Part shown: piece by piece, positions 54,235 through 57,607 of the stretch
Position numbering within the stretch: position 1 is the first letter of the stretch
Layout: every line of letters starts with the position of its first letter
Source: Escherichia coli O127:H6 str. E2348/69
Lineage (GTDB): Bacteria; Pseudomonadota; Gammaproteobacteria; Enterobacterales; Enterobacteriaceae
Assembly: GCF_000026545.1 (NCBI RefSeq)
Contig: NC_011601.1
Direction: 5' to 3' (one strand)
Length of the DNA stretch: 64,000 nt
The notes under the pieces: generated by a model
Databases searched by the model: none
Seen by the model: only the letters and a program-made list of their open reading frames with translations
What the model was told of the DNA's origin: nothing
Program-made: the position numbers and the translations under genes

Positions 54235-54812
54235 TGGTTGCCTCCTTTGCGAATCTGTTCCGCCCATTCTTCAAGGGATTTCTCCGCATATTCACCGGAC
54301 AGGCCATCAATCGGGTGCAGTTCATTAGCCAACTCTTCTTTCGCTGACAGAATCATGCGTGTAACGTCGAAAACTTCACGCAAAGACTTATTGATAAATC
54401 CGTGGTTGAAAGCAGCAGCAAGACGGCTGGCGGTATAGTTAATCCCCTCGTTGCGTGCTTCTGCACGAATTTCAGCCAGAAAAGCATCGGTAGCTGGGGT
54501 GTCTGATTGCAGAAACTTTGCGCGATAGTCATTCCACCCTCTTGCATACATGGGATTAACTTGCACTCCATCTTTTACGCAATATGCCTGCCCTCCACGG
54601 TTGATAACCTTGATTTCGTCCATAGCGCCAGACTTCAGCCCCGCATTCTCCGCTGCCAGCGCCGCGCACTTGGCCTCAGCTTCAGCAAATTTACGCACCA
54701 TATATTCAGCATTTGTTTCGTTAACCTTTAAATCACATGAGATGCATTTACCTTTCAGAAATCCATCCATCTCAATTAGTGTCATTCGTTTCATTTCTTC
54801 CCACTCCGCCAC
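54231..54812 (-). CDS. hypothetical phage protein (193 aa)
   Basis: Long ORF in lambda b2/ea region, tightly packed with neighbours; no recognisable motif. Confidence 0.5.
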
Positions 54813-54973
54813 ATCGCATTCAGATATTTGTTTTGATTCACTGACGGAGAAGAATTTCTCTTAAGCAATTCCTCTCTCGATGGCATTGGCTTTACGCGTT
54901 GGCGAATAATCATTTCTGCCGGAAGAATGCCGGGATTGTATGCAAGTCCTCTCATGGTAAATTCCTCAGTCAT
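54791..54973 (-). CDS. hypothetical small phage protein (about 60 aa)
   Basis: Internal Met ([15 protein letters not shown]...) of ORF 54791..55105 gives a start just past the upstream stop. Confidence 0.3.
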
Positions 54974-55259
54974 TACTGATAGCGCCATAGCGTGAGCGGT
55001 AATTACGCAGGCGCGGGTCAATTTCAGGGAAGTGTGTATATGCGGCTTTGCGGAATGGTCGTATTGATGTCTGGTAAATTCGCTCTCGTTCTTCTTTCTC
55101 TGCAAGCCATATACAGTGGCGAAATTCCTTTTCCTCTTTCGTTTCCTGCGGTAGCGACATTATCCGGTCGTAGTTTTTCCTGAATTTATCCAGCACCTCC
55201 GATACGGAATTGCCGGAACAGCGGCGCGGGTCATCCGCACCATACTGAGGCGCTGGCAT
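54966..55259 (-). CDS. hypothetical phage protein (97 aa)
   Basis: ORF immediately downstream of ssb. Confidence 0.45.
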
Positions 55260-55272
55260 GATTTTCTCCTGA

Positions 55273-55779
55273 TTAAATTGCGTGAATAGCGTGACGAGGG
55301 AAGGGGAGAGTTACTGGTGCAAAGGGTATATCGTCGTCAAAATCCATCGGAGGTTCGTTGTGTTGTGCTGGTGATGATTGCTGCTGTGGCTTCTGTGATT
55401 GCCTGCTGGCTGCTTGTTGTTTGCTGTCGCCAATGCCGCCAAGCATTTGCATCACGCCATTAATTCCGACATGAACCTCGGTTGTGTAACGGTCTTGCCC
55501 TGACTGGTCTTTCCACTTTCTGGTTCTCAGCATTCCCTCGAAATAAATCTGATCACCTTTTTTCACATACTGCCCCACGACCTCAGCCAGTTTCCCGGAT
55601 ACAGCAACACGATGCCATTCAGTCAATTCCTTTTGCTCGCCAGTATTTTTATCTCGCCATTGTTCTGACGTGGCTATTGTCAGGTTAGCGAACGCTGTTC
55701 CTGATGGTGAGTATCGAACTTCCGGGTCTTGTCCTACCCGACCAAGGATAATCACCTTATTTACGCCTCTGCTTGCCAT
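55273..55779 (-). CDS. ssb: phage single-stranded DNA-binding protein
   Basis: 168 aa starting [23 protein letters not shown] (OB fold), Gln/Pro-rich linker, acidic tail DFDDDIPF. Confidence 0.9.
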
Positions 55780-56487
55780 TTATGCTGCCTGTTTTAGTTC
55801 GTTAACTCTGATGTTCATTACCTGAACACATTTAGCCTGCGCCTCCTCGTTGCCAGCCATTAATTGCCAGTCACGCTGATAACGCTCGATGAGTTTTTTC
55901 TTGTCAGTTTCTGTCGCTGCATAATCGCTGAAGTCTTTCAGGATTTGTTCGCAGTCAACCGATGGAGATTTCTGGTTGGTATTTTCTGGTGATGGTTTGT
56001 TATCTGATGCTGGGATTGCCCATCCCGGCAGTGATGGAGGTAGCCAGTAAAATCCTGTTCCATCCTTCAGTTTTGCCCTGTGCCACCCCTGCTTTTTATC
56101 GAGAGATGTTTGTGCGAAACCTTCCTCAAGGTTATACAGATACCGACCGATTCCCCACTGAACGGCAGCGCGCTTCATTGCACCGGAACGACCGCCTTTG
56201 ACAGCTTCTACCTGCGTGTTTTCAGCAGCATCCCATTTGGTTACCCATTCGGAATCAATCCTGATTGATATGCCGCATTCAACGCCTCCGTTGTTGGGAA
56301 TATCGCGGTATTCATTGCGCCATCCTGCTTTGCCGCAAACATCGTCCAGACGTTTCATGATTGCCCGGTTCGTGACATAAGCCAGCACCATAGCCCACAC
56401 CTTGCCATCGCGTGTTTTACCGCTTTGCTGTATTCGCCATTCGATATCTTCAGGGCTGAATGGCTCATCGAATTTGTTCAAATCCAT
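55780..56487 (-). CDS. single-strand annealing recombinase, Rad52-like N-domain with Erf-like C-terminus
   Basis: 235 aa; N-terminal half has Rad52/Sak-type motifs (GISIRID, AMKRAAVQWGIGRYLY); C-terminal 50 aa (EQILKDFSDYAATETDKKKLIERYQRDWQ...) resembles P22 Erf C-terminus as recalled; adjacent to ssb. Confidence 0.7.
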   Translation of the reverse strand: MDLNKFDEPFSPEDIEWRIQQSGKTRDGKVWAMVLAYVTNRAIMKRLDDVCGKAGWRNEYRDIPNNGGVECGISIRIDSEWVTKWDAAENTQVEAVKGGRSGAMKRAAVQWGIGRYLYNLEEGFAQTSLDKKQGWHRAKLKDGTGFYWLPPSLPGWAIPASDNKPSPENTNQKSPSVDCEQILKDFSDYAATETDKKKLIERYQRDWQLMAGNEEAQAKCVQVMNIRVNELKQAA

Positions 56488-56586
56488 AATTCACCTCAGA
56501 ATGGACACGGCCCAAGGAAATAACGCTGATTTAATACTTCGACTCGGGACAAATTAAGGCATACCCGCATTCCTTCGCGGTCGCCA

Positions 56587-56745
56587 TTATGGCGATACCA
56601 GAGAGCTTTCTGCGTGTACATGCGTCTCTGTAACTTGCTCTCCTTCACTGTGGTTGCAAGTGACATGAATATCTCCTTCGTTACCGATTAATTCTTTCAT
56701 CTGACGAATGAATTCTTCGTCTGAGCAGTTATCTGTAAAACTCAT
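56587..56745 (-). CDS. small acidic hypothetical protein (52 aa), coupled to kil
   Basis: Hand-translated ORF MSFTDNCSDEEFIRQMKELIGNEGDIHVTCNHSEGEQVTETHVHAESSLVSP; its ATG overlaps the kil-like stop (ATGA). Confidence 0.3.
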   Translation of the reverse strand: MSFTDNCSDEEFIRQMKELIGNEGDIHVTCNHSEGEQVTETHVHAESSLVSP

Positions 56746-56894
56746 TTCCTGCGATACCACGGAAGGTTGATAGCTGATTTCATCGCTTTATTTGCTTCAA
56801 GCCACATTTTGGAATCACCAATAAATCTGGCTATTACTGCTTTGTTCTGTGCAGCACGAAGCATCTGGTGATTGATGGCTATTTCATTGCGCAT
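56742..56894 (-). CDS. kil: Kil-like host-killing small protein
   Basis: Hand-translated 50 aa MRNEIAINHQMLRAAQNKAVIARFIGDSKMWLEANKAMKSAINLPWYRRK; FIGD-x-KM motif and position next to cIII as in lambda. Confidence 0.45.
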   Translation of the reverse strand: MRNEIAINHQMLRAAQNKAVIARFIGDSKMWLEANKAMKSAINLPWYRRK

Positions 56895-57013
56895 AACGCC
56901 TCCAGTTGTTTCTTTGCTGCTCTGATTAATTGTTTAACTCGGCGTGATAATTCAGATTCGTGCGGGTAGAAAGCGGACATGACGCCGCTACCCGCGAGCT
57001 GAAAGTGCATCAT
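56879..57013 (-). CDS. cIII: cIII-like FtsH inhibitor
   Basis: 44 aa MMHFQLAGSGVMSAFYPHESELSRRVKQLIRAAKKQLEALCAMK after RBS aaggag; pattern resembles lambda CIII (AG...V...P.ES.L..R). Confidence 0.5.
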   Translation of the reverse strand: MMHFQLAGSGVMSAFYPHESELSRRVKQLIRAAKKQLEALCAMK

Positions 57014-57088
57014 GGGTAACTCCTTATATTTGATTGCATAACGAAAACGCCTCGAGTGAAGCGTTATTGGTATGCGGTAAAGCCGCAC

Positions 57089-57457
57089 TCAGGCGGCCTT
57101 GATAGTCATATCATCTGAATCAAATATTCCTGATGTATCGATATCGGTAATTCTTATTCCTTCACTACCATCCATTGGAGGCCATCCTTCCTGACCATTT
57201 CCATCATCCCAGTCGAACTCACAAACAACACCATATGCATTTAAGTCTTTCGAAATTGCTATAAGCAGAGCATGTTGCGCCAGCATGATTAATACAGCAT
57301 TTAATACAGAGCCGTGTTTATTGAGTCGGTATTCAGAGTCTGACCAGAAATTATTAATCTGGTGAAGTTTTTCCTCTGTCATTACGTCATGGTCGATTTC
57401 AATTTCTATTGATGCTTTCCAGTCGTAATCAATGATGTATTTTTTGATGTTTGACAT
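57089..57457 (-). CDS. highly acidic 122-aa protein in the lambda ea10 slot
   Basis: ORF with RBS gagga; C-terminal EFDWDDGNGQEGWPPMDGSEGIRITDIDTSGIFDSDDM; low GC; terminator directly upstream. Confidence 0.6.
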   Translation of the reverse strand: MSNIKKYIIDYDWKASIEIEIDHDVMTEEKLHQINNFWSDSEYRLNKHGSVLNAVLIMLAQHALLIAISKDLNAYGVVCEFDWDDGNGQEGWPPMDGSEGIRITDIDTSGIFDSDDMTIKAA

Positions 57458-57475
57458 CTATTCATATCCTCATAG

Positions 57476-57503
57476 ATAAAAAATCGCCCTCACATTAGAG
57501 GGC
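57476..57503 (-). terminator. intrinsic terminator between the 156-aa moron and the 122-aa gene
   Basis: Minus-strand hairpin gccctc-taatgt-gagggc followed by gatttttt. Confidence 0.7.
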
Positions 57504-57607
57504 AAAGAAGATTTCCAATAATCAGAACAAGTCGGCTCCTGTTTAGTTACGAGCGACATTGCTCCGTGTATTCACTCGTTGGAATGAATACACAGTGCTT
57601 ATTCGTA

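Follow-up and report, generated by a model that had tools for sequence, protein, structure and literature searches.

Short genes cIII and kil, and two overlapping reading frames, ahead of a prophage recombination module in Escherichia coli O127:H6

How many genes lie between an ea10-like gene and the first large recombination gene of a lambdoid prophage in Escherichia coli O127:H6 str. E2348/69, and what might their products do? The question was put to a 64,000-nucleotide stretch of contig NC_011601.1 (assembly GCF_000026545.1), called the window below, whose coordinates are used throughout; the cluster is on the minus strand, as are all other features described here, and its operon reads leftward. 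For 56587-57013 the initial annotation, made from the letters and a list of open reading frames (ORFs), had proposed three serial short genes of 44, 50 and 52 amino acids, the first two likened to lambda cIII and kil. Reading of the strand and the ORF list bear out all three with their exact coordinates and overlaps, but a fourth frame of 56 codons, ORF4, had been missed; it overlaps the third, ORF3, and is the better conserved of the two where they overlap.

Very probably (at roughly 85%) the interval belongs to the N-dependent early-left (pL) operon of a lambdoid prophage whose mosaic is of the HK022/HK97/Sf6 type. The cIII-kil-ORF3 stretch is already known, consisting of catalogued CIII and Kil peptides plus a known hypothetical family. 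As many as 63 ORFs of at least 25 amino acids occur within the surrounding 4 kb, so that short ORFs are common by chance, and the case for the three genes is therefore made by family matches and not by the frames being open. The ORFs, their family memberships, the pattern of selection and the synteny are what this analysis has established directly, and its gains are the overlapping fourth gene, the frame-specific selection and a link to HkaM of phage HK620 and to the slot that holds arf in phage P22.

CIII and Kil in an early-left operon

The cIII gene (56879..57013) would be translated from its own strong ribosome-binding site, a Shine-Dalgarno AAGGAG (57020..57025, read from the sequence) six nucleotides before the ATG, in keeping with the strong site initially proposed. 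Its 44-residue product, MMHFQLAGSG...CAMK (MMHFQLAGSGVMSAFYPHESELSRRVKQLIRAAKKQLEALCAMK), scores 104.7 bits against Pfam PF08134 (gathering score 25; E=2e-30), with residues 2-38 spanning profile positions 1-37 of 37, and matches phrog_550 'CIII' at E=2.6e-13. By exact look-up, with more than 1000 contigs, it is Swiss-Prot RPC3_BPHK0, Regulatory protein CIII of HK022; HK97 CIII is likewise 100% identical. The CIII proteins of HK022, HK97 and H-19B, reported to be identical to one another (Kobiler et al. 2007, PMC1838920), have this same 44-residue sequence in the same slot between an ea10-like gene and kil, with no difference.

The expected alignment to lambda CIII did not materialize, BLASTP giving no pairwise alignment, the active region of lambda CIII (residues 14-37) included, and the lambda-class profile PF02061 only 12.4 bits (cut-off 25.7), and the peptide is therefore filed under the HK022 class. 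Two classes of CIII have been distinguished, lambda-type and HK022-type, the latter being a second class of FtsH inhibitors (Kobiler et al. 2007, PMC1838920). In a multiple alignment only the pattern AG...ES.L.R...L is common to this peptide and lambda CIII, while Sf6 gp32 bridges the classes, having lambda's central ESLLERITRKLRDGWKR together with a C-terminal LCAMK as in the window. Judged by sequence, the peptide is placed in the CIII family through the HK022-class profile and through sequences that bridge the classes, Sf6 gp32 among them. By homology the product would be an amphipathic-helix peptide acting as a competitive inhibitor of the FtsH protease, and so would stabilise CII and favor lysogeny.

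Immediately downstream is kil (56742..56894), its first 16 nt being also the last 16 of cIII; the order is that of lambda, P22, HK97 and Sf6. The 50-residue Kil peptide, singled out initially for its ARFIGDSKMW motif, matches the full PF06301 (Lambda_Kil) profile (positions 1-31; 72.6 bits with a cut-off of 27.6; E=1.7e-20) and phrog_2055 'Kil' (E=1.2e-35), and is identical to Protein kil of HK022 (VKIL_BPHK0), an exact look-up that again brought more than 1000 contigs. Here the alignment to the lambda protein did hold: 17 of 30 residues (57%; E=3e-9) are identical to lambda Kil residues 3-32, the helix-turn-helix core, and FIGD is conserved, i.e. the Gly-Asp turn of that core (G26-D27). This turn is essential for the activity of lambda Kil (Naha et al. 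2025, PMC11762379). The peptide differs from lambda Kil by 7-9 additional N-terminal residues and by a C-terminus ending ...PWYRRK where lambda has ...RSSKSIH. By homology it would fold as a helix-turn-helix and, through a ZipA-dependent disruption of FtsZ rings, block division on induction.

On the minus strand the order is N, a 156-aa ORF, the ea10-like DUF2528 gene, a terminator-like hairpin, cIII, kil, ORF3, ORF4, a Rad52-type annealing protein, SSB and Abc2. The ea10-like gene (57089..57457; PF10800, E=1.1e-46) has the same cIII neighbor as in lambda, where ea10, also of 369 nt, directly precedes cIII; ea10-cIII-kil thus matches lambda, and the lambda-like succession of cIII and kil that had been taken to support the calls is borne out. 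The hairpin between the ea10-like gene and cIII (57046..57065), found by pattern scan, consists of AACGCTTCACTCGAGGCGTT and a T-rich tail. HK97 has a putative terminator annotated at the same position and P22 likewise has one upstream of c3; N antitermination presumably reads through it here. The 156-aa ORF and the ea10-like gene are separated by a second terminator-like hairpin (57484-57505; 8 bp, then TTTTTTAT). An Rfam scan of 54500-59500, including the cIII mRNA element, gave no match at E<=1.

A 701-bp query from the interval is 100% identical to the prophage of E. coli E2348/69 and to several other strains, is 94-99% identical to phages ECP1, mEpX2, mEp235, HK106, HK97, HK022 and Sf6, and finds a match in 2089 of 5426 complete E. 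coli genomes. With this kind of prophage in about 40% of complete E. coli genomes, and cIII and kil being textbook lambdoid genes of experimentally grounded families, their presence confirms only that the early-left operon of an HK022/HK97/Sf6-type prophage is intact.

Two overlapping frames between kil and the recombinase gene

ORF3 (56587..56745) encodes an acidic peptide of 52 residues with a net charge of about -9, and its ATG overlaps the kil TGA as ATGA (56742-56745), both as initially read; it would be translated through stop-start coupling with kil. The peptide matches phrog_2123 over its full length (positions 1-52 of 52; E=2e-40), the family that includes Sf6 gp30 (98% identical), HK022 p38 and the N-terminal part of HK97 gp42.1. 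A profile search of 1.84 billion proteins found just 28 representative clusters, so the family is small, and its conserved core is the N-terminal 20 or so residues, MS[FI][TA]D[NT]W[ST]D[ED]xFIR[QL]M. The Cys and His content remarked on initially is present in this copy but is not kept in relatives: of 62 other unique variants, 61 have Trp in place of the rare Cys7, and Cys30 gives way to Ser or Arg in divergent relatives. With the residues not conserved, the idea of a conserved metal-binding Cys/His motif was rejected.

What is kept is the start. Overlap of the ORF3 start with an upstream stop is retained for at least five unrelated upstream genes (kil, a 56-aa CIII-like gene, a third gene in locus L087, KilR in L095 and a Kil-like gene in an Enterobacter phage), and loci with unrelated upstream genes converge exactly at the ORF3 ATG. 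The frame stays open in the divergent loci L092, L095 and L099, and the indels in L092 are in frame. Erwinia phage vB_EhrS_59 has, just before its ORF4 homologue, a gene (gp44) with DFDFIRALYEM at the same 19-codon distance from the ORF4 ATG; this gene ends at the start of that homologue with an ATGA overlap and no overlapping tail.

Several further features of ORF3 were seen in passing. In some Salmonella and E. coli copies (P0001, P0019) the 7-residue unit EFIRQMK of the conserved helix is repeated in frame once or twice more, through tandem duplication of 21 nt. In the DEEFIR codons (56703-56721) an EcoRI site is flanked by the arms of a perfect 6-bp inverted repeat (GACGAA GAATTCA TTCGTC), five stem base pairs of which are kept in L095, the repeat being absent in L092 and P22 arf. 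In phages Louie (L008, 1501-1897) and HK140 (L006), which have RecT modules, the ORF after kil keeps the first 16 residues of ORF3 and then continues into another acidic tail (35 aa), with a 102-aa gene in place of ORF4, so that a mosaic junction falls inside ORF3.

ORF4 (56496..56666) lies in the +1 frame relative to ORF3, with which it shares 80 nt, and its end is separated from the recombinase ATG by 8 nt. It would start inside ORF3 from a strong site of its own, AAGGAG (56673-56678) six bases before its ATG. The 56-aa product belongs to the HK97 gp42/Sf6 gp29/HK620 HkaM family: its match to phrog_1723 is full-length (E=9.4e-36), HkaM matches the same profile at 3.6e-33, and hhalign to HkaM gives 88% probability (E=2.8e-6). 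The family alignment combines divergence at the protein level with an invariant C-terminus, E-V-L-N-Q-R-Y-F-L-G-x-x-P-F. An AlphaFold2 model of ORF4 is a helical two-helix hairpin (pLDDT 92); such a hairpin is not distinctive, and a fold search with the model gave nothing better than E=1. A linker-joined ORF3-ORF4 AlphaFold model, at pLDDT 55 and pTM 0.38, was uninformative. Two candidate relationships were discarded. One was that ORF4 is a paralogue of Kil, both being helix-GD-helix hairpins (hhalign probability 1.3%, no PF06301 match); the other was that ORF4-Erf fusion proteins exist, the 'ERF family' members of ORF4's 90% cluster turning out to be plain Erf fragments devoid of ORF4 sequence and hence a clustering artefact.

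Which of the two frames is constrained can be judged from close relatives, here 62 unique near-identical DNAs from 93 loci. (A search for related loci with the ORF4 alignment gave only loci with identical ORF4, of use for the mosaic analysis; the divergent ones came from encoding contigs and phage records.) Of the distinct substitutions in the 80-nt overlap, nine leave the ORF4 protein unchanged but alter that of ORF3, one of them creating a stop (Q37*), and one does the opposite; in the part belonging to ORF4 alone the ratio of synonymous to non-synonymous changes is about 23:11. ORF4 is therefore the constrained gene of the overlap, and the C-terminal 26 residues of ORF3 (codons 27-52) are unconstrained, following ORF4 passively. 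Ahead of the overlap, over the 75 nt of ORF3-only codons 2-26, dN/dS among three divergent lineages (window/mEpX2, L095 and L099) is 0.19-0.35 in the ORF3 frame and 0.8-3.5 in the other two frames, which hold stops. Selection would accordingly act on just the N-terminal 26 or so residues of ORF3, predicted to form a single acidic helix.

HK97 gp42.1 (L002, 2331-2582) is 83 aa long, its ORF3 part being carried into the ORF4 frame by two additional bases, and many 82-aa proteins of the database (among them P0008, P0010, P0015, P0031, P0046 and P0049) are similar fusions through small indels at varying positions. With the P0031 fusion recurring on 36 contigs, sequencing errors cannot account for all of them, and some at least are real variants. 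Programmed frameshifting from ORF3 to ORF4 was considered as an explanation and set aside, since the switch sites are many and mostly singletons, and HK97 merely has two extra bases; to judge from their sequences the 82-aa variants look like the product of sporadic indels or of sequencing errors and not of a defined slippery site.

Existing annotation is uneven here. On identical sequence (NZ_CP059840.2 3113704-3114221, corresponding to window 56496-57013) RefSeq has kil by name and cIII as a 'hypothetical protein', with ORF3 and ORF4 uncalled, so that both small genes between kil and the recombinase are missing. The description of the cluster as unannotated is thus apt only in part; ORF3, left out by RefSeq, is carried by the original E2348/69 annotation as CAS08537.1 and is present in the HK97, HK022, Sf6 and mEpX2 records. 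Two ORFs between kil and the recombinase are annotated in HK97, Sf6 and mEpX2, ORF3 and ORF4 being genes 30 and 29 of Sf6 and gp42.1 and gp42 of HK97. None of the four peptides has an NCBIfam model. Both phrog_1723 and phrog_2123 are labeled 'recombinase', and unrelated Erf fragments sit in ORF4's 90% cluster; the label looks like annotation spill-over from the neighboring gene and not functional evidence.

Is ORF3 a gene, a leader or an Arf?

At one extreme ORF3 could be an open frame that arose by chance, ORF4 being the only real gene of the interval. The passive evolution of its overlapping part as an alternative frame of ORF4 is what this would predict, the RefSeq pipeline does not call it, and frame-fusion variants, including HK97 gp42.1, are tolerated. 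It is nevertheless very unlikely, as purifying selection on codons 2-26 is specific to the frame, start-codon coupling is conserved across unrelated upstream genes, and the L092 indels are in frame while the other two frames have stops. A subtler possibility is that translation of ORF3 matters and its peptide does not. Ribosomes ending kil would reinitiate at the ATGA and cross the ORF4 ribosome-binding site, and would so tune expression of ORF4 and the recombinase. In keeping with such a coupling or leader function, ORF3's own ribosome-binding site is poor (AGGA only 1 nt from the ATG), the stop/start overlap is retained in every context, the start of ORF4 and its ribosome-binding site are both internal to ORF3, the tail is free even to acquire Q37* in one variant, codons 8-26 are very conserved at the nucleotide level in close relatives, and the RNA of the kil-ORF4 spacer folds better than shuffles (z=-3.0). 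A peptide without function does not, however, sit easily with the low dN/dS of the ORF3 frame between divergent lineages, with the acidic-aromatic motif being kept in Erwinia gp44 where the sequence is otherwise different, or with Louie and HK140, which retain the ORF3 N-terminus before another acidic tail and have no ORF4 downstream to be regulated. This role on its own is unlikely.

A third reading has ORF3 distantly related to P22 Arf, an accessory function that stimulates Erf-dependent recombination, and doing the same job. Both are small and acidic and come after kil and before an annealing protein; SDEEFI stands near the N-terminus of both, in synonymously different codons; P22-type arf precedes recombinases about 90% identical to that of the window in Salmonella phages SE1, UAB_Phi20 and BTP1; and one public source names an 88%-identical protein (P0018) 'accessory recombination function protein'. 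But the profile Phage_Arf, PF17585, does not match ORF3 even at E<=10, hhalign gives 7-9% probability over 15-16 columns, BLASTP aligns the six-residue motif only, the 28 proteins drawn from 1.84 billion representatives by the ORF3-family profile include none of the fetched P22 Arf proteins, and the neighbor of the recombinase is ORF4, not ORF3. The equation with Arf is doubtful, and by sequence comparison ORF3 is not filed as Arf. From the selection pattern and the conserved coupling we conclude that ORF3 is probably a real, translationally coupled gene whose functional part would be its N-terminal acidic helix.

Several points weigh against the account of the operon and its small genes preferred here. 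The signal of purifying selection on ORF3 is drawn from no more than three divergent lineages and 75 nt, and among near-identical variants the ORF3-only region has about 19 non-synonymous and four synonymous changes, mostly singletons. ORF3 is absent from several loci that bear ORF4 (L089, L090, L093, L094 and HK620), its homology to Arf is not demonstrable, and the cIII peptide, as said, cannot be aligned pairwise with lambda CIII by BLASTP. For this prophage every function, and with it each biochemical activity ascribed to a peptide of the cluster, would follow from homology or position. The suggestion that all three original genes interfere with the host is acceptable for CIII and Kil by family; nothing bears it out for ORF3, whose position points to the recombination module. 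A last point concerns ORF4. In HK620, sak4 and ssb alone matched the recombineering level of the whole module (Hutinet et al. 2018, PMC5928155), so the ORF4 homologue HkaM is not needed in the Sak4 oligonucleotide recombineering assay; this dispensability weakens a direct recombinase-cofactor role.

The head of the recombination module in known phages

ORF4 relatives always lie a few bases upstream of a recombinase, whichever its family, in all loci with readable downstream sequence (window-type, HK97, Sf6, L089, L092-L095, L098-L100 and HK620). The recombinase is Rad52-type in the window, L089 and S.Kent, Erf in HK97 and L094, and a Sak4-type ATPase in L092, L093, L095, Erwinia and Enterobacter phages and HK620. 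Identical ORF4 can be joined to Erf-type or to Rad52-type genes, and mosaic junctions are therefore placed at the ORF3 ATG and the ORF4 stop. In the window the gene that follows (55780..56487), the first large gene of the module, encodes a Rad52/Sak-type single-strand annealing protein (PF04098, E=7.2e-26) 99.6% identical to Sf6 gp28. Over its C-terminal 80 or so residues this protein shares 65% identity with the C-terminal end of P22 Erf (L005), the N-terminal domain of Erf being unrelated, and the Sak4-type proteins of L092, L093 and L095 cross-match an Erf query downstream of their Sak4 match; these similarities suggest a C-terminal domain common to several recombinase families.

All ORF4/HkaM-family members examined end in Pro-Phe-COOH (GPCPF, GGCPF, GKLPF, SELPF, DELPF), even at 36% identity. 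This end resembles the tip of the SSB tail (...DDDIPF), a likeness offered as an idea only. The SSB tail tip docks onto many recombination and replication proteins. The prophage's own SSB (55273-55779) has the canonical DFDDDIPF and then 15 more residues, so that the usual tip is internal and not C-terminal. One could imagine that ORF3 and ORF4 are a frame-overlapping accessory cassette and functional counterpart of P22 Arf, in which the Pro-Phe-COOH of ORF4 would take the place of the SSB tail at its docking sites on recombination proteins of host or phage, with the acidic-aromatic N-terminal helix of ORF3 acting together with ORF4. It is a long shot, though if true it would explain why ORF4 precedes three unrelated recombinase families.

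More soberly, the ORF3-ORF4 pair is conserved and widely distributed and keeps strictly to the head of recombination modules, and its most likely role, going by position alone, would be accessory to phage recombination or to the handling of DNA ends. A family member of ORF4 is HkaM of HK620, which was first labeled 'arf' by position alone and has no homology to P22 Arf (Hutinet et al. 2018, PMC5928155). HkaM and ORF4 are both directly upstream of a recombinase and both end in Pro-Phe, but HkaM directly follows kil, without an ORF3, and precedes Sak4 instead of a Rad52-type protein. In P22, with the order c3-kil-arf-erf, the slot between kil and the annealing-protein gene is filled by a single gene, whose product, Arf (PF17585), has no known molecular function (PMC12315714) and is like ORF3 in being small and acidic. 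In the window two overlapping genes are found there, ORF4 being interposed between ORF3 and the recombinase, and the best-supported view is that ORF3 and ORF4 occupy the Arf slot, where they would form a two-gene mosaic cassette heading the recombination module.

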